Virus record (IMG/VR): IMGVR_UViG_3300021400_000026
Strand: one strand, 5' to 3'
Length of the DNA stretch: 64,000 nt
DNA from: a virus
Made by a program: the position numbers and the translations under genes. The notes beneath the pieces are model-generated. The model saw only the letters and a list, made by a program, of their open reading frames with translations, made no database searches and was not told where the DNA came from. Shown here piece after piece: positions 3,238 to 64,000 of the stretch (position 1 is the stretch's first letter; every line of letters begins with the position of its first letter).

Positions 3238-3264
3238 AGTTCTAATTAAGTGAAGAGTGAAGAA

Positions 3265-4089
3265 TTACCACCGCTTGACAAGTTTGCCGATGGGTTCCAT
3301 GCCCCAATGTAGGCGAATCTTGTCACGACGGATGGACTTGTTGCGTGTTGCCTGTGCCTTGGCGACGCGTGCCTTTCGTGCTTCGGGCGTTTCTTCCGAC
3401 ACACGGCGACGGGCATTGTCCTCACGGCTCAGCAGATAGAGGTTGGAGAGGTCGCAGTTCTGACGATTGCCGTCACGAAAGGCGACCACATAACCCTCGG
3501 GCACTTCGCCGTTGGCTTGCTCCCAGACGTAGCGGTGTTTCAGTACGCAACCGCTTTCGACGCGGAGATAGACGTACCCGTCACCATGCACGCACTCGGT
3601 GCCGATGTCTCGCTGATTGTGCGGTCGGTGTCCTGCCTTGAATCGGGTGCGGCTGCTCCGCTTGATGCCCTCTTCGCTCATGAACTCCTCGATGCGCTTG
3701 CCCTTGTTTGCTGGCGACTGGCCTTTGGCAAACTGATTAGCCTTTGCGCCCTCGGTCGATGCTACCAGGTGTCCCCATTGTGCAAGGAACTCGGGGCTTT
3801 TCTTCAGTCCCAACTTCGATGCCGTGCGCCATACGCTGCCGATGGTGTGCCGTACCTTCTTGGCGATGTCCTCTGCCTTCATGTCGGCATAGTGCTTTCG
3901 CAGGTAGGCGAGTTGTCGGTCAGTCCACGGCTCACGCTTATGCACCTTGCGCTGTATGCCGAGTATCTGGGCACGGCTTTTCAGTGCTGCCTTGCTCACT
4001 CCGATGCGCCCGGCCACCCAGTCGAGGTCACGCTTTGGGTAGTGCCTGCGAAGTAGGTTGTCACGTTCTTCGTTCCAAACTCGTTTCAT
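3265..4089 (-). CDS. HNH_3-type endonuclease with two N-terminal Myb/SANT-like HTH repeats
   Basis: Track ORF trimmed to ATG 4089 (ATGA overlap). Contains GYVYLRV...HRYVWEQANGEVPEGYVVAFRDGNRQNCDLSNL. Confidence 0.7.
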   Translation of the reverse strand: MKRVWNEERDNLLRRHYPKRDLDWVAGRIGVSKAALKSRAQILGIQRKVHKREPWTDRQLAYLRKHYADMKAEDIAKKVRHTIGSVWRTASKLGLKKSPEFLAQWGHLVASTEGAKANQFAKGQSPANKGKRIEEFMSEEGIKRSSRTRFKAGHRPHNQRDIGTECVHGDGYVYLRVESGCVLKHRYVWEQANGEVPEGYVVAFRDGNRQNCDLSNLYLLSREDNARRRVSEETPEARKARVAKAQATRNKSIRRDKIRLHWGMEPIGKLVKRW

Positions 4090-4313
4090 GCCTCCTTTGG
4101 TTTTATCTTGATAGTCGTTACCCTCTCGCATATCAGCGAAAAGTTCATCTTGCACATATTCCCGTCGGGGTCGCGCTCGATAATCATCTGCGTTTTCTCT
4201 TCCCAGAAGTATTCGCAATCATTCCGCAAGAATCTGCGAATGTCGGAAAGTATCACGTTCTTCGCTGCATCGGGTATTGCGTTCTTGTCAATCTTGATTA
4301 CACTCTTCGCCAT
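4086..4313 (-). CDS. hypothetical protein
   Basis: Track ORF 4086..4337. The internal start MAKSVIKIDK at 4313 is preferred. Overlaps the neighbouring HNH gene. Confidence 0.45.
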   Translation of the reverse strand: MAKSVIKIDKNAIPDAAKNVILSDIRRFLRNDCEYFWEEKTQMIIERDPDGNMCKMNFSLICERVTTIKIKPKEA

Positions 4314-4818
4314 AGTCGTAACGCTCTTTGAGGTCAATTCCTAATTCTTCAGCTTTCGCCTTCATCATTTCAATGTTCTTCCACGGGTTGCAATGGATTT
4401 CCTTGTGGCATTTGTGGCAAAGCATGACGATGTTCTCTCGCTTGTTTCGCAGTTCGGGGAAACGTGCCCAGGGTAAGGCATGGTGCGCTTCCATATCCTT
4501 GTGGCTCTGAAACTCTGTACCACATATCGGACACTTATGCCCCTGCGCCTCCCATACTGCGTTGCGGTCTTCGTGATACGTCTTCCAACCGCCCGTATAA
4601 GGTCGGGTGTCTCGCTTCTTCAACCGCGCGTTGCTCACTGCGAAGAAAAGTCCAAAAGCGTGCCACCGCTTAATCCATTTCTTCGGTTTCTGCATCGAAA
4701 ACGGCGGGTTGATGATTGTCACCTGCCCGCCGCTATGGTTCACCAACTCGCCAATCACCGCAATGGGTGTGTGGTAGGTCGGCTCTCCCGTTCGTCTGAA
4801 TAATTCGTTTAATGTCAT
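4288..4818 (-). CDS. HNH endonuclease
   Basis: 176 aa with HKCPICG...EAHHALPW...LCHKCHKEIH. Start has the AAGGAACTATG context. Confidence 0.8.
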   Translation of the reverse strand: MTLNELFRRTGEPTYHTPIAVIGELVNHSGGQVTIINPPFSMQKPKKWIKRWHAFGLFFAVSNARLKKRDTRPYTGGWKTYHEDRNAVWEAQGHKCPICGTEFQSHKDMEAHHALPWARFPELRNKRENIVMLCHKCHKEIHCNPWKNIEMMKAKAEELGIDLKERYDYGEECNQD

Positions 4819-4928
4819 AGTTCCTTAATAATTCGTTGTTTTTTGCCCTTAGGCTTACGCCGCTTCCCGTTTGTCGGGAACGCTCAAATGTTCTGTTCGT
4901 CTGTCATTTGTTCTTTGATTTTAATATG

Positions 4929-5175
4929 ATTCGTTGTTTTCTTTGCCCTTAGGCTTCCCCAAGCTCCGTAGGTGTTGGCTTTGCCCACCTCTGTCACGAC
5001 TCGGCCATGTCTGAGCAAGCTCACATGGCTCTCGCTGCTCCATCGGTTCAGTCGAGCGGAGCTCGGAGTCCGCCGCTTCCCGTTTGGCGGGAAGGTTTAG
5101 CTCGACGGCCCGCGCTCGGCATCCCGAAGGGTGACGCTTGCTACCAACGGGACGCAAGAAGGGGAAAGTCAATGC
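4929..5175 (-). ncRNA. candidate structured RNA (family unknown)
   Basis: No credible ORF. Nested complementary segments on the minus strand: TTCCCC/GGGGAA closing pair, GTCGAGC/GCTCGAC, CTTCCCG-ccaaa-CGGGAAG, GCCATGT..ACATGGC, GCTCCG/CGGAGC, and a CCC-UUCG-GGG-type loop. Confidence 0.4.
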
Positions 5176-5245
5176 TCAAATGTTCTGTTCGTCTGTCATA
5201 ATTCGTGTAATTTCGTTAAGTGAAGAGGGAAGAGTGAAGAATTTG

Positions 5246-5827
5246 CTACCAACCTTTGATGTCGTACAACATTTCGAGCGCATTGTCTATTCGGCTAATG
5301 CTACCACCACCTACGGAGCGGTACTTTCTGAAATTACGACGACCAATTCGCAGCAGGTCTCCCACGGTCTTGATGTCGTTGCTCTCGAATATCTTTCCGA
5401 GCCTTACACCATAGCCTGGATCGTAGCCATCATATCCGACGTGGGATAGAATGACGCCTACGGGTGCGCTGTCAACATTATCAGGCCACCATCGGTCGGG
5501 GTCTTCCTTTGGTTCCAACTGCGCAACACGTTCTTTCAGTTCGTCGCGTTCCTGCTCAATCTTCAAGTATTCGTCACGCATCTTGTTGCCCCACTCCCTT
5601 TGTTCGTCGAGCGATTTCATCAGCCGTTGGATTTCCGAACCTTCATCCTTCCACGATGTCGGCTGTGCGTCGTTGGTGTAGATGATACCCTCCACGTCCT
5701 CGATGTGGAAAAACACGCCTTTATCACCATAGACATTCACCACAGCCTTCTCTCTGTCGTGCTCAACCATTGTGACCGCCTTGTCGTTGATGAAGCGGTC
5801 ACCGTTCTTTGTCTTTACGATAATCAT
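5246..5827 (-). CDS. hypothetical protein with RpoA alpha-CTD-like helix-hairpin-helix C-terminus
   Basis: Trimmed to ATG 5827 (catagtt context). The C-terminus IKTVGDLLRIGRRNFRKYRSVGGGSISRIDNALEML resembles the alpha-CTD. Confidence 0.6.
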   Translation of the reverse strand: MIIVKTKNGDRFINDKAVTMVEHDREKAVVNVYGDKGVFFHIEDVEGIIYTNDAQPTSWKDEGSEIQRLMKSLDEQREWGNKMRDEYLKIEQERDELKERVAQLEPKEDPDRWWPDNVDSAPVGVILSHVGYDGYDPGYGVRLGKIFESNDIKTVGDLLRIGRRNFRKYRSVGGGSISRIDNALEMLYDIKGW

Positions 5828-5840
5828 AGTTTCTTGATTT

Positions 5841-6194
5841 TTAATAGTCCTCGTTATGACTGCCGTCCTCGTTGTAACTGTCTTCAAAACCTGAAGCACT
5901 GAATGGTCGGTAGGTCAGTTCCAGTTGTCCGTCGTTGAATGCCTCGGCAAACATGTGGTACTTCCCGCATCCGTTGTATTCGGGGTCTGCCTTGTGCTTG
6001 TCGTATGCCTCGGTCAGAATCTCGCGTGACACGGCGATGATTTCATCCACCGAAGGCGTGTGGCGTTCACCTTCACCTTTCAGTCCGTACCACTTAACGC
6101 CCATCAATACCATGATGGCTTGCACTTTCTCAAAGTCGAAGTCGCAAAGGATGTCATTAACCATTGCGTCTCTTTTCCTGTTGTCTTCGTTCAT
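5841..6194 (-). CDS. hypothetical protein
   Basis: 117-aa track ORF with the conserved AACTATG start context. Confidence 0.65.
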   Translation of the reverse strand: MNEDNRKRDAMVNDILCDFDFEKVQAIMVLMGVKWYGLKGEGERHTPSVDEIIAVSREILTEAYDKHKADPEYNGCGKYHMFAEAFNDGQLELTYRPFSASGFEDSYNEDGSHNEDY

Positions 6195-6288
6195 AGTTGC
6201 TTGAAATTTGTGTCAATTCGTGATAATTCGTGTTAAGAATCAGAAATCGGCGGCAAAAACCGTTGCCTGTCGCCGATTCCGTTAGAGT

Positions 6289-7682: not shown

Positions 7683-7766
7683 AGTTCCTTGATTTTAATT
7701 TGTGAATAATTCGTTTAATTCGTTTAATTAATCCCGCTGTCGCGGTCTTGACTTTGCTCACGCTCG

Positions 7767-7793
7767 GCAATGCTCAAACACGTTTGGCATTGC
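7767..7793. promoter_or_regulatory. conserved 27-bp near-palindrome
   Basis: GCAATGCTCAAACACGTTTGGCATTGC. The same sequence recurs at 63491..63515. Confidence 0.6.
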
Positions 7794-7821
7794 TCTCGCT
7801 TACTCGCAAAGTTCGTAGTCA

Positions 7822-8193: not shown

Positions 8194-8619
8194 TCAATAA
8201 GGATTATTTTGTTTGCCTTTCTTCATGCGCTCCTTTTCATCCCGGATAGCGTCGTTCAGCGTTGCCTTCAGCTCACGCAGATGCTTGAAGGTCTCGGCAG
8301 GTGTTCGCGGACATCCCCGGACGAATGACCGCAAGTTCGGCGTGTCAAAGCCAAACTCCGAAGCGTCGCAGATGTACTGCTGCCACTCCTCGTACTGCTC
8401 ACGGGTCACGTCAGCCAACACGCAGTAGATGATGTCGTCCATGTTGATGGTGAACATCCCGTCGCCATAGTCGTACACGCCTCCCGTCTCGTCGCCTATC
8501 CAATAGCCGTAGTGAGCATCCAGTTCCCACATGCGCAGCAGCTCCACGAGGAAGCCGTTGCACGCCTGCTCCCATTGCTCTTTCAGTAGTCGCTTAATAG
8601 CGTCTTTTGTCTTTTTCAT
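8194..8619 (-). CDS. hypothetical protein
   Basis: 141-aa track ORF, tightly packed with its neighbours. Confidence 0.7.
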   Translation of the reverse strand: MKKTKDAIKRLLKEQWEQACNGFLVELLRMWELDAHYGYWIGDETGGVYDYGDGMFTINMDDIIYCVLADVTREQYEEWQQYICDASEFGFDTPNLRSFVRGCPRTPAETFKHLRELKATLNDAIRDEKERMKKGKQNNPY

Positions 8620-8718
8620 AATTCGTTAAGTTAAAAATGAAGAGTGAAGAATTAACGAAAAGAGCAACCGCCCGTCGTTGGGTGATTGCTCTTTTCGTGA
8701 TGTGTGATGTGTGATGTC

Positions 8719-10288: not shown

Positions 10289-10687
10289 TTAAAACAGTTT
10301 TTGGTCTTGTGCTTTCAATGCACCGACGATATAATTCACATTTTCTAACATCTGGAGCTTATAGTCCGACCTGTTAAGCATGGCAATGAAGATGTCGCCA
10401 CGCAACTTGCGCCAGTATTCACGCTCAGCAATCTTGGCGCGATGGTCATCCTGTTCCTTTACGTCGAAGGTCTTCATGATGTCGGTCAGCGACTTCATCT
10501 GTTCGCTCTCTCCCATCATTGGGATAGCAGGCGGCAAAGCGTCACTCAGGTCGAGCCTCTCGATGTGGTACTTATTACCATTGATGTCAACGAAGAAAGG
10601 CGAACCTTTCTGGTCGTGCGTCACCATTACTCTCTCTCCCGTCTCATGCAAAATAGCATTGAGGAATGTTTTCTGTTTTCCTTCCAT
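10289..10687 (-). CDS. hypothetical protein
   Basis: 132-aa track ORF with the ACGAATTATG start context. Confidence 0.65.
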   Translation of the reverse strand: MEGKQKTFLNAILHETGERVMVTHDQKGSPFFVDINGNKYHIERLDLSDALPPAIPMMGESEQMKSLTDIMKTFDVKEQDDHRAKIAEREYWRKLRGDIFIAMLNRSDYKLQMLENVNYIVGALKAQDQKLF

Positions 10688-10731
10688 AATTCGTTAAATT
10701 TGTTGTTTTATAAAAATTCATTTCAATTCGT

Positions 10732-22869: not shown

Positions 22870-22922
22870 GTGAATGCTGTAACAAACAAATTTTTTATGA
22901 AAACAAATCTTAAAGTCTTTCG

Positions 22923-22996
22923 TCGCCATAGATGGGCTCGAACCACCGACCTCACCCAATGCAAAGGGTGTGCTCTACCAACAGAGCTATACGACG
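22923..22996 (-). tRNA. tRNA, isotype undetermined, 8-nt anticodon loop UUUGCAUU
   Basis: Hand-folded cloverleaf. Acceptor CGTCGTA/TATGGCG; D arm GCTC-TGTTGGTA-GAGC; anticodon stem CACCC/GGGTG with an 8-nt loop; T arm GGTGG-TTCGAGC-CCATC. Confidence 0.65.
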
Positions 22997-25427: not shown

Positions 25428-26663
25428 ATGAGCATAACAAAAGTAACAAGTGCAATCGTATGGGACCATCGGGGGCGTGTCGCCGAGGGTGGCAAGGGCC
25501 AGGTGGAGATCCGTGTGACGGTGGCCAGAAAGTCGTACCATTTCGGCACTGGTGTGAAGTGCTACAAGAACGAATTGGTGGCAGGGCAACTGTTAGACTG
25601 CCCTGGTAAGGATGAACTAAACCGCAAGATTGGAATCATATATAACAAGGTACTCGCGCTTGTGAATGCGTGCGTGGACGCGGGCGAACCTATTAATACC
25701 GAAGAGATACGGCGGCAGGTGTGGCAGACGGTGGAGGCGCAGTCGGACGAGCCTGTGTTCATGGACTGGCTGGCGGAGCAGGTGCCGGAGCTGGGCGTGT
25801 CTGAGGGTACACGGAAGCACTATGACCCGCTGCTGGTACGGCTGGAGGCTTTCGGGCGGATGAAGCGGTGGCAGGATGTGACCGTCGAGAATATCGCCAA
25901 CTTCGATGCGTGGTTGCATTGTATCACAAAGCCTTTGAGCGATGCCAGGCGCAAAGCTGGTGCCAAGCCTGAAAAGCTGAGCGATGCCGCTATTTATAAC
26001 TACCACAAGTGTCTGAAGGCTCTGCTCAACCGTGCGCTGTCGTTTGGAAAGATTGACGCAAACCCTTATGACCGCCTGAAGGGGAAGTTCAAGCGAGGTG
26101 AAAAAGAAAACGTGGAATATCTCACTGAGGAAGAAATGAAACGTTTCGAGGCTATCATACTGCCGAAAGGTTCAGAACTTGATGTCGTGCATGATCTCTT
26201 CATCTTCCAGATGTTCACGGGTCTGCCTTACTCTGATATGCAGGCCTTCGACGTATCAGATTATAAATGGGATGGCAAAGCATGGAAGCATGTCGGCGAA
26301 CGCATAAAGACTGGTGTGCCGTATGTTTCACAACTTCTCCCTCCGGCGGTGAAGATTCTCGAAAAGTATGGTTGGGAAATCCCGCAGTTATCCAATGCCG
26401 ACTATAACCGCCACTTGAAGGCACTCGGACAGATGGCTGGTATCAAGACACGGCTTCACTCACACCTCGCCCGTCACACCTTCGCCACCTACATGCTGCG
26501 CAATGGGGTGAAGATCGAAAATGTCTCGAAGATGCTCGGACACACGAATATCACGCAGACGCAACGCTATGCGAAGGTGCTGGCGGAGTCGGTGCATGAG
26601 GACTTCGACATGATAGCAGAGAAGCTCGAAACGAAGAAACGGAAAAGAATGTCTAACCCTTAA
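25428..26663 (+). CDS. int: tyrosine recombinase / phage integrase
   Basis: 411 aa. The C-terminal HLARHTFATYMLRNGVKIENVSKMLGHTNITQTQRYAKV carries the H-x-x-R ... H ... Y catalytic pattern. Confidence 0.9.
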   Translation: MSITKVTSAIVWDHRGRVAEGGKGQVEIRVTVARKSYHFGTGVKCYKNELVAGQLLDCPGKDELNRKIGIIYNKVLALVNACVDAGEPINTEEIRRQVWQTVEAQSDEPVFMDWLAEQVPELGVSEGTRKHYDPLLVRLEAFGRMKRWQDVTVENIANFDAWLHCITKPLSDARRKAGAKPEKLSDAAIYNYHKCLKALLNRALSFGKIDANPYDRLKGKFKRGEKENVEYLTEEEMKRFEAIILPKGSELDVVHDLFIFQMFTGLPYSDMQAFDVSDYKWDGKAWKHVGERIKTGVPYVSQLLPPAVKILEKYGWEIPQLSNADYNRHLKALGQMAGIKTRLHSHLARHTFATYMLRNGVKIENVSKMLGHTNITQTQRYAKVLAESVHEDFDMIAEKLETKKRKRMSNP

Positions 26664-27311: not shown

Positions 27312-28226
27312 ATGAAAAAAGTGTTTAACCTGTCGCACCGCGACAAACTCGTTGTGAATCTCTTGCTGGGCGTGATTGCCCTCAGTCTCTTAAACCTCTG
27401 CCTTTCGTCGTGCAACCGCACTGACGGCGAAGAAAATGCTACAGCCAAAGTGAATGTCGCATGGGCTGACACGCTCGAAAAGAAAACCGTCACCTTCGAC
27501 TTCACAGGCTTGCGGGCAAAGACTCGCGCCACGCTGACGGAGCTCACGATGACAGACCTCTGGATTTTTGACTACATGGGCGATGTCTTCCAGCAATCCG
27601 TCCACCAAGCGAGCACAGATGCCACCTTCGGTTCTCCGTCGCTCTCGCTCGATTATGGCGAACACACCTTCTACTTCGTCGCCTCTCGCGGATCTGATCC
27701 CGTCGTTGATACCGATGCAAAGACTATCACATGGGGCAGTGTGCGTGATACGTTTCATGGCTCCCTGTCGCTCAATGTTCAACCCAATTCAGGCAGCAGC
27801 CAGCCTGTGTCGCTCTCGCGCTGCGTCGGTCGTCTGCGAGTCAGTGCGACTGATGTCGTTCCAGATGGGGCTGCAAAGCTCGTGGTGTCACCTTCCTCAT
27901 GGTATTATGGCCTGAATTATCAGTCGGGCGAATGTGTGGCCGATTCGCCGACACCTTTGGTCGTCAATATCCCCAGCAGCTATATCGGTACCACGAAACT
28001 CGCCGCCTCGTTCTATACCATCAGCAGCGCGTCACCCTGGCAGACGGATATGACCGTTGCGCTCGTGGCCACAGACGAGAGCACCATCGGCAGCGTGACC
28101 ATCTCTGACATGCCGATACAGCGTAACCATGTCACCTCCTACGCTGGTGGCATCGTCGGTGCTGGTCGCACGCTGAATCTTGGCAGTGATGATGAGTGGG
28201 TGGAGGACGAGACCGTCAACTGGTAA
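27312..28226 (+). CDS. lipoprotein (fimbrillin/Mfa2-like suspected)
   Basis: Signal peptide plus lipobox LSSC. 304 aa and beta-rich. Confidence 0.5.
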   Translation: MKKVFNLSHRDKLVVNLLLGVIALSLLNLCLSSCNRTDGEENATAKVNVAWADTLEKKTVTFDFTGLRAKTRATLTELTMTDLWIFDYMGDVFQQSVHQASTDATFGSPSLSLDYGEHTFYFVASRGSDPVVDTDAKTITWGSVRDTFHGSLSLNVQPNSGSSQPVSLSRCVGRLRVSATDVVPDGAAKLVVSPSSWYYGLNYQSGECVADSPTPLVVNIPSSYIGTTKLAASFYTISSASPWQTDMTVALVATDESTIGSVTISDMPIQRNHVTSYAGGIVGAGRTLNLGSDDEWVEDETVNW

Positions 28227-63044: not shown

Positions 63045-63398
63045 TCACTCTCCTTTCCATGCTTTCATAAATACCTCGAAGTCCTTGCTGTCTATCCACA
63101 CAATATCGCTGATTTTCGGCTGATACTGAAACATGATGCCAAAAACTTGGTCATGCGTGGTTTCCTCTTCGGTGACAGCGGTCACACATACCACCTTGTC
63201 GGTATCTACCCACAGCGTTTGATAGTCTGGCTGTTCAAGCAGATATTCCTTCAGTGTCTTACCCATAAGGGCTTTGGTGAACATGCCTTCAAGTCCTTCA
63301 GCATTGTCCATCGTTTTTGCTACTGTAGCAGAAAAAGTTCTGCGTGTCAATTTGATTTTTGCCATAGTTCCTTGATAATTTATGAGAAATTCGTTCAA
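63045..63398 (-). CDS. hypothetical protein (paralog of 10732..11052)
   Basis: MAKIKLTRRTFSATVAKTMDNAEG... The start may be at the internal MAKIK (63361, catagtt context). Confidence 0.7.
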   Translation of the reverse strand: MNEFLINYQGTMAKIKLTRRTFSATVAKTMDNAEGLEGMFTKALMGKTLKEYLLEQPDYQTLWVDTDKVVCVTAVTEEETTHDQVFGIMFQYQPKISDIVWIDSKDFEVFMKAWKGE

Positions 63399-63496
63399 TT
63401 CGTGTTCATTTATTCTTTCCTCCCTCTATTGCCCTGTCGGGCTTCCTCGGTCGGCTCTCGGCCGCTCGGCTTTGCCGCTTGCCTAAGCAAGAATGC

Positions 63497-64000
63497 TCAA
63501 ACACGTTTGGCATTGCCCTCGCTCCTCCCTCGGTTCATATACTCCCCGATATGCACCACCTGCTTCGCCATGCACCAGTCGGCGATGTCCTTGCCGCCAC
63601 CATAGACCACGAGGTTCGGGCGGTCGCACTCGCTGATGCGGCGGGCCATCTCCAGGTGGCGGTCGAGGGTGGGCTGCCAGCCGCTCACGCCTCGGGTGAA
63701 GAAGGCGTTGTAGCCCTGGGGGATGCCGAGGGCGTTCCAGCGTTCAAGGTGGGGCGACACGTTCAGGTCGGCCCATACCTGTAGGCCGCACTCCTGAAGG
63801 TAGCGGGCGAGGTAGCGTTTGCGGTAGATCTGATAGAGGGCGATGGCGACGGGCGTCTGGTCGTGGATGCTGACGTTTGGCTCTACGACGGCGCGACAGC
63901 CGGACTGCAACAGCAGGATGGGGTTCTTGAAGAGTTGCTCGAATCGGTAGTCATCCACATAGAAGTGGTAGGTGGTGATGCCTTTCTTGTAGCGGCCTTC
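63497..64000 (-). CDS. DUF4417-like protein, partial (5' end outside window)
   Basis: The frame stays open to the window edge (...YHFYVDDYRFEQLF...). The track start is only an internal GTG. Confidence 0.6.
   Translation of the reverse strand, partial: EGRYKKGITTYHFYVDDYRFEQLFKNPILLLQSGCRAVVEPNVSIHDQTPVAIALYQIYRKRYLARYLQECGLQVWADLNVSPHLERWNALGIPQGYNAFFTRGVSGWQPTLDRHLEMARRISECDRPNLVVYGGGKDIADWCMAKQVVHIGEYMNRGRSEGNAKRV

Follow-up and report, generated by a model that had tools for sequence, protein, structure and literature searches.

The interval at positions 4819–5245 of the 64,000-nt viral DNA analyzed here (IMG/VR record IMGVR_UViG_3300021400_000026; this whole stretch is referred to as the window) lies directly upstream of an HNH endonuclease gene on the minus strand, and it holds the same short leader-like sequence twice, one copy being expanded by a dense set of hairpins. 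The question is what such a block is. An earlier note on this DNA had read it as an RNA serving the HNH gene, either catalytic or regulatory in cis, or, alternatively, as a small, structured, mobile insertion standing beside its empty counterpart. Comparison with related loci makes it rather likely that the interval is a non-coding spacer laid down in three layers, namely a boundary element, a tandem duplication, and nested inserts of miniature mobile hairpins. The block is probably a pile-up of mobile miniature hairpin repeats and not a regulatory or catalytic RNA specific to the HNH gene.

The 26-mer that had been noticed on the minus strand with starts at 5199 and 4907 was recovered by an exact search of the stretch exactly twice, at 5174–5199 and 4882–4907, and none of the shuffled sequences contained a match. 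Each 26-mer is indeed followed by the same hairpin and tail. The core hairpin with its GCGGCG lies at 5071–5093 in the distal copy (copy A) and at 4858–4880 in the proximal copy (copy B), the hairpin loops differing by one base, and the 15-nt tail lies at 4942–4956 and 4842–4856, respectively. The two insertions of the distal copy, estimated earlier at about 75 and 115 nt, measured 79 nt before the core hairpin (5094–5172) and 114 nt after it (4957–5070) relative to the proximal copy. The helices that had been named (TTCCCC/GGGGAA, GTCGAGC/GCTCGAC, and others) were found in the sequence, and the 427-nt interval folded moderately better than its shuffles (z = −2.3).

Read along the minus strand, the interval begins right after the stop codon of a 217-aa gene (5246–5899) that has no Pfam or PHROG match and lies outside the element. 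A CT-rich leader module (5200–5245) with TTCTTCACTCTTC-type heptads and then ACGAATT boxes is followed by the ATG plus 13 nt (5184–5199) that had been called a mini-ORF, and by the left end of boundary element A, ACATTTGAGC (5174–5183), with an A at −3 in 102 of 109 distinct left flanks. Next come the 5′ part of an insert, ins1 (5159–5172; 33 nt in total), a 46-nt hairpin element, M46, inside the ins1 loop (5113–5158), and the 3′ part of ins1 (5094–5112), delimited by alignment with other copies. After the core hairpin, TTCCCG/CGGGAA with GCGGCG, whose arms covary over 104 variants, stand the 5′ arm of ins2 (5049–5070; 41 nt when un-nested), a 72-nt rod-like hairpin element, M69, in the ins2 loop (4977–5048), and the 3′ arm of ins2 (4957–4976), again placed by alignment. 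The tail of element A, AAGCCTAAGGGCAAA (4942–4956), is repeated as the tail of copy B. The spacer at 4908–4941, which has an ACGAAT box and then a degenerate form of the standard translation-start leader, would have served the ParB-like gene whose second 16-nt stump follows at 4892–4907, within the second 26-mer. Boundary element B (4842–4891) has the basic 50-nt form of left end, core hairpin, GCGGCG, and tail, of which more than 140 instances occur elsewhere.

The HNH gene itself (4288–4818; Pfam HNH, 1.1e-7; PHROG HNH families) is preceded by its own leader (4819–4841), an ACGAATT box and AAGGAACT immediately before the ATG. Positions 3265–4218, further downstream, hold a second HNH gene. 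Because the first gene retains its own leader, it probably does not depend on the composite, and it has no specific tie to the block.

Copy A equals copy B plus ins1, M46, ins2, and M69. The suggestion of a mobile insert beside an empty counterpart was thus right in kind, but four nested inserts are present instead of one, each with a filled and an empty partner. For ins1 the filled site is L089 and the empty one L240, and for ins2 the filled site is L042 and the empty ones L246 and L307, the upstream gene being held in common in both cases. M46, which is missing from the ins1 of L089 and occurs elsewhere alone and inverted, is filled in copy A and empty in L089; it is also filled in the ParB-like gene of L254 and empty in that of L105 and L248. 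M69, missing from L042, L077, and L089 and found alone in L003, L180, L224, and L302, interrupts the terminase-small-like gene of L302 and L313 relative to L082, L105, and L077. A further pair lies inside the window, where a second M69-type element on the minus strand at 7761–7808, with host-type flanks, is uninterrupted, and a third at 63440–63535, also on the minus strand, carries M29, a 29-nt relative of M46 (63463–63491), which is inserted 3′ of TT at the base of the M69-type hairpin. In copy A the ins2 and M69 junctions are each one base off the nearest empty site (a T lost in one case, AGC against AAC in the other).

The alignment arranges these forms in a graded series, from the basic element through elements with ins2 (L042, L077) and with ins1 (L089) to those that have M46 and M69 as well (the window, L004, L006, L272, L279). 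At the end of the series stands L005, where a second M69 in tandem adds 74 nt. The number of copies also varies: L006 and L279 have A only, in the latter directly before an HNH homologue; the window and L005 have A and B; L272 has A and a B with a longer stump. These differences between relatives indicate that copy number changes by recombination between the repeats. The ends of the L006 contig (2960 nt) overlap by 26 nt in copy A, and it carries two genes and a terminator-like hairpin; it represents either two A copies around a cassette or a circular form.

The short reading frame MTDEQNI had been taken for a leader. In L272, copy A and the same spacer are followed by 19 codons (MTDEKNKVNIEVVDIDSLR) of a ParB-like gene before the element begins, and the window keeps only MTDEQN of it. 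A full-length relative of the truncated gene (L312, 123–1448) matched PHROG ParB-like families at 5.7e-17, and a Pfam search of this relative gave nothing. The ParB-like gene is truncated by the boundary element at four different points, and the left end of the element is often joined to other truncated genes, among them a sliding-clamp-like N-terminus (L239, L248) and HU-like genes (L063, L045, L239). On this sequence comparison, the mini-ORF is read as the first 5–6 codons of a ParB-like gene cut by the boundary element of about 50 nt. At L082, L105a, and L077 the ATG is out of frame with the TGA of TTTGAGC. As the mini-ORF is a stump and its ATG stands out of frame elsewhere, the leader peptide is an accident of truncation; a short frame that is kept and tied to one downstream gene was not found, since both the frame and the downstream genes differ between loci. 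Both copies carry the mini-ORF because a tandem duplication took in the stump together with the element and the ACGAAT tail.

When IMG/VR, JGI metagenomes, and GTDB genomes were scanned with patterns, 143 true instances of the boundary element with 109 distinct left flanks were recovered, and in rumen Prevotellaceae phages the element is common in the spaces between genes. In two scans of viral collections with 14–15-nt patterns, most matches were due to chance, and some real loci were kept after BLAST. A BLASTN search of the 1.7-kb region against 50,697 GenBank phages returned no match. The element is about 50 nt long and comprises the left end ACRTTTGAGC, a hairpin of 6–7 bp, GCGGCG, a GCC/GGC mini-hairpin, and CAAA. 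The flanks on its left side are unrelated up to −4 and are then followed by A (102/109), C/G/T, A/G, and TTTGAGC; the right end is GGGCAAA-like. The core hairpin is found as UUCCCG/CGGGAA, AUCCCG/CGGGAU, UCCCCG/CGGGGA, UUUCCCG/CGGGAAA, and GCCCCCG/CGGGGGC, the two arms covarying. The instances were recovered in phage contigs of rumen and gut origin and in metagenome-assembled genomes (MAGs) of Prevotella, Prevotellaceae, Alloprevotella, and Muribaculaceae, with 1–4 copies per genome in five related MAGs that were searched whole. In three MAGs, two of them labelled Prevotella, a copy precedes a lipoprotein-like gene in what is otherwise a normal spacer of the chromosome (genes read by eye).

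In the phage contigs that were inspected first, about a dozen and by eye, the element pointed the same way as the genes. For the larger set, ORF length and a codon model placed 34 instances in the orientation of the downstream gene and 9 in the opposite one (about 3–4 to 1), and since most flanks stayed unscored, these figures state a bias only. The Bacteroidetes −7 promoter box has the consensus TAnnTTTG. In the boundary element only AnnTTTG is conserved, the first-position T is not (15/109), and neither a −33 box nor a U-run after the hairpin was found. Given the orientation bias and the partial resemblance to the −7 box, the element may function in gene expression, or it may be a recombination point like the promoter-early/stem-loop (PeSL) cassettes of phages.

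Two further points concern the same element. The purine run after the GCC mini-hairpin (AAGGG, AGGGG, AAAGGG, or GGGGGG) varies with the hairpin arms and mirrors the 3′ arm, both at 4842–4891 and in an alignment of 105 elements, its length correlating with that of the C-run (0.80). Such a run could have the geometry of a purine-motif base triple, or of a pyrimidine-motif triple on the other strand, and it could also be a lineage marker. A CRISPR-repeat mimic was considered and rejected, as the genome matches were single or irregularly spaced and formed no arrays.

Three of the insert types obey a target rule. Fifteen junctions of M46/M29, ins2, and M69 were scored, and in every one AA directly follows the element on its 3′ side and is retained at the empty site; on the opposite strand the same rule reads as insertion 3′ of TT. 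The insert ins1, which is not among these types, sits 3′ of TT. No target duplication was seen at the filled/empty pairs, and the only visible target is the dinucleotide. M46 or M29 occupies 10 independent sites and M69 four or more, with AA on the 3′ side in all of them. The coding targets of M46/M29 are a ParB-like gene, one further coding sequence, a DUF4160-like gene that was entered twice, and, in four contigs, HU-like genes; its other targets are the ins1 loop, the CT-leader module, an M69 element, and two further spacers. Most targets are predicted loops or linkers, and M46 occurs in both orientations relative to the genes.

M69 folds into a rod-like hairpin with CGAG/CGAG tandem G·A mismatches and a small second hairpin. 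RNAalifold predicted 20 pairs from 20 phage-type copies, and 11 of the 20 showed compensatory changes; one pair was seen as U–A, C–G, A–U, and G–C, and one G·U pair was invariant. Three 5′-GA/3′-AG tandem mismatches and a bulge of one or two bases in the 3′ arm are kept. Covariation among homologs, which the earlier note had proposed as a check, is therefore present in M69 and also in the hairpin at the core of the boundary element. In 28 of 31 copies of M69 the forward strand was more stable than its complement, with RNA as well as DNA parameters. Host relatives of the M69 type number 2–5 per genome in each of four Prevotellaceae MAGs, the reversed control pattern giving 0 matches, and M69-type cores ranged from 0 to 5 copies per MAG over those counted.

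M46, M29, and phage-type M69 are 29–82 nt long, have lengths that are not multiples of three, and carry stop codons; most copies are intergenic. Several copies inside genes were seen in addition. In HU-like genes (L212, 5038–5470 and 3094–3300; L263, 7257–7700; L269, 3264–3420), M46 stands after codon 30 at a constant codon phase and brings an in-frame TAG; it measures 47 nt there, and 39 nt in one copy. In two of the contigs a long open C-terminal part follows and ends in M69. A small DUF4160-like gene of a Prevotellaceae MAG (L422, 1800–2350; G002, contig C87), assigned to its family by eye from a motif, has two 29-nt M29 elements and one inverted M69 within about 300 nt. Host-type M69 lies in open frame within a topoisomerase-III-like gene and one other gene (L419, 191–273; L420, 1376–1458; read by eye).

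From this sequence evidence we infer an order of events. The boundary element would have cut the ParB-like gene after 5–6 codons, producing the apparent mini-ORF, and the unit of stump, element, and ACGAAT tail would then have been duplicated in tandem. Into the element of copy A, ins2 and ins1 would have entered, followed by M69 into the ins2 loop and M46 into the ins1 loop. M46/M29, ins2, and M69 would act as miniature non-autonomous mobile DNAs that enter precisely 5′ of AA without duplication. Insertion may take place on single-stranded DNA hairpins, with an enzyme of the host or the phage, such as an HUH/Y1 enzyme or a different one, acting in trans. No transposase or other mobilizing gene was found in the window or in the element-bearing loci examined, and an HMM built from MAG Y1 transposases had no match there; Y1 transposase genes are present in the MAGs outside those loci. 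In a Muribaculaceae MAG (L408, 1340–1460 and 2070–2190), an IS200-like Y1 transposase gene lies between direct repeats of about 200 nt, whose hairpins show the CGAG/CGAG tandem G·A motif as in M69 and then a shared 8-mer, AACCGATG; the resemblance is weak.

A bolder version of the same idea holds that M46, M29, and M69 are undescribed single-strand hairpin mini-transposons active in phages and their Prevotellaceae hosts, whose copies inside genes (HU-like, ParB-like, terminase-small-like, DUF4160-like) are tolerated by ribosome hopping or shifting, as in T4 gene 60 or the mitochondrial byps. We give this very little chance of being correct. In coding genes the codon phase of M46 never varies, and each of its ends has a CGC codon; these would be possible take-off and landing sites. 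A hop of the gene-60 type that starts and lands on GAC or CGA was dismissed because the frame is not restored; by eye, and as speculation, only the CGC...CGC pair would restore it.

Could copy A instead be a dedicated structured RNA, such as a cis-regulatory leader, a ribozyme, or a small RNA gene, which controls the HNH gene and uses the mini-ORF as a leader peptide? We regard this as very unlikely. The many helices, including UUCG- and GNRA-like loops, the folding score of −2.3, the sense orientation directly upstream of the HNH gene, and the covarying helices and better-folding sense strand of M69 all speak for it, as does the conservation of the block, which is 96–98% identical in L004, L005, and L006 and also occurs in L260, L272, and L279. 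The surroundings of the block, however, are not conserved: upstream genes in L004, L005, L279, and L006 differ from that of the window, and the composite precedes four unrelated genes (HNH, head-tail-connector-like, a 707-aa gene, and a 175-aa gene). HNH homologues occur with and without the block; in L001 an upstream protein 85% identical to that of the window and an HNH homologue (58% protein identity) are separated by a short spacer with no block. The inserts also occur alone, M46 antisense to genes, and within coding sequences. In L005 a substitution disrupts the core hairpin and the extra 74-nt unit is present, and the mini-ORF, a gene stump, loses its frame at L082, L105, and L077. An Rfam family of riboswitches, ribozymes, or phage RNAs, which the earlier note had suggested looking for, did not emerge either: cmscan at gathering thresholds gave a tRNA-like match only over the whole window, and nothing at 4600–5500 even at E ≤ 10. 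The 83-codon ORF at 4921–5172 is present, as listed, and the doubt that it encodes a protein is borne out. Its frame is open here and in L272, but it has no Pfam match, starts with TTG within the element, is interrupted in L005 by the 74-nt unit (not a multiple of three) in its middle, and is built of modules that elsewhere are intergenic, read in a different frame, or lie on the opposite strand; that it is a real small protein gene is barely conceivable.

PeSL cassettes of T4-type phages are conserved and intergenic, flank variable accessory genes, and serve as recombination points (PMC2839356, PMC4122927). A regulatory cassette of this sort (a promoter, a 5′ stem-loop, or a terminator), shuffled only by homologous or illegitimate recombination so that the inserts are exchanged variants, is the next explanation to weigh. 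The boundary element does stand at gene borders beside accessory genes (HNH, methyltransferase, ParB-like), its AnnTTTG left end resembles the −7 box, and its orientation is biased toward that of the downstream gene. The A/B copy number varies by recombination, and L006, a 2.96-kb contig beginning and ending within copy A, looks like a cassette between two copies. We nevertheless hold a cassette to be unlikely. The T of TAnnTTTG is not enriched, the −33 box and the U-run are absent, and the element also occurs in the opposite orientation and in bacterial chromosomes. Recombination of cassettes, moreover, does not explain precise insertions of 29–82 nt in coding genes, always 5′ of AA. The elements here share with PeSLs their conservation between genes beside phage accessory genes, and differ in having no recognizable promoter and terminator pair, in belonging to another host phylum, and in their precise nested insertions, including those in genes.

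The preferred reading, a pile-up of miniature mobile hairpins, was compared with other known repeat systems. REP, REPIN, and BIME repeats with their RAYT transposases are short imperfect intergenic palindromes that form mosaics of units (Bertels and Rainey 2011, PMC3116915; Di Nocera et al. 2013, PMC3733652). The ends of REP-type repeats can supply stop codons and some copies lie within ORFs (PMC3733652); they are thought to move as single-stranded hairpins by a Y1 transposase acting in trans. The elements here are likewise short palindromes between genes, arranged in mosaics, with some copies within genes. Unlike REPs and REPINs, they have the GTAG/CGTC tag at no end of the boundary element or M69 (M46 contains GGTAGC and GCGTC internally only), they number 1–5 copies per genome and not hundreds, no RAYT flanked by these repeats was found, and they are shared with phages and nested in each other's loops. 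This low copy number also sets them apart from classical MITE families.

A survey of prokaryotes and viruses listed 41 MITEs in Prevotella phages (PMC11602168). Our elements resemble phage–host MITEs in being small, non-autonomous, and present in both phage and host genomes; classical MITEs are described by terminal inverted repeats and target-site duplications, and the absence of a duplication at any pair separates the elements from that description. Rickettsia palindromic elements (RPEs), as cited in PMC3733652, are palindromic repeats inside protein-coding genes. The host-type M69 copies in open frame within the topoisomerase-III-like and the other gene, as read by eye, are of this type, unlike M46, M29, and phage-type M69, whose lengths and stop codons do not fit and most of whose copies are intergenic.

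IS200/IS605 elements lack classical terminal inverted repeats and target duplication, recognize a fixed short sequence on one strand, and have strand-specific hairpins. Their miniatures, the palindrome-associated transposable elements, are comparable to the elements here in the lack of duplication, in the AA at 15/15 junctions, and in the strand-specific hairpin (28/31 for M69). The two differ in that only the TT/AA dinucleotide is fixed here, and no related full-length IS was identified, the IS200-like element of L408 being the sole lead. An integron attC site was also tried and rejected: the ends misfit the RYYYAAC/GTTRRRY core, and the tyrosine integrase of the window is 20 kb away. None of the families compared, REP/REPIN/BIME, IS200/IS605 miniatures, RPEs, PeSLs, and MITEs, is matched in full in the features that define it, be these tags, copy number, target duplication, or partner genes.

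For the search for RNA motifs in viral metagenomes, the locus carries a caution, as a structured intergenic stretch of a phage can be the sediment of tiny selfish hairpins and not one functional RNA. Several element families of 29–82 nt are now defined by boundaries and a target rule; they are common to rumen Prevotellaceae and their phages and could be used as markers of host linkage. The exchange or truncation of accessory genes (HNH, methyltransferase, ParB-like) also occurs at junctions that the elements mark.

Other repeated features were seen in the window. A separate intergenic module, GCGGTAGCCAA with TTCTTCACTCTTC-type heptads, occurs at about 5225–5245, 8640–8660, and 3250–3270 and in many contigs; it starts at the stop codon of unrelated genes and appears to supply the TAG itself. 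The start region of early genes is conserved, with two to three ACGAATT boxes per spacer at 9–10-nt spacing followed by AAGGAACTATG; boxes lie on the minus strand at, for example, 4800–4836, 5198–5206, 6221–6231, 7706–7723, 8618–8626, 10686–10694, and 63394–63403. There are 10 minus-strand copies of AAGGAACTATG, and ACGAATTAT occurs 7 times against 0.34 expected. In the middle of the window, a tRNA-like gene with an 8-nt anticodon loop (22922–22996), a tyrosine integrase gene (25428–26663; Pfam, 7.9e-18), and an Mfa2-like fimbrial gene (27312–28226) are found, and this region could represent an island that was inserted or the end of a prophage.
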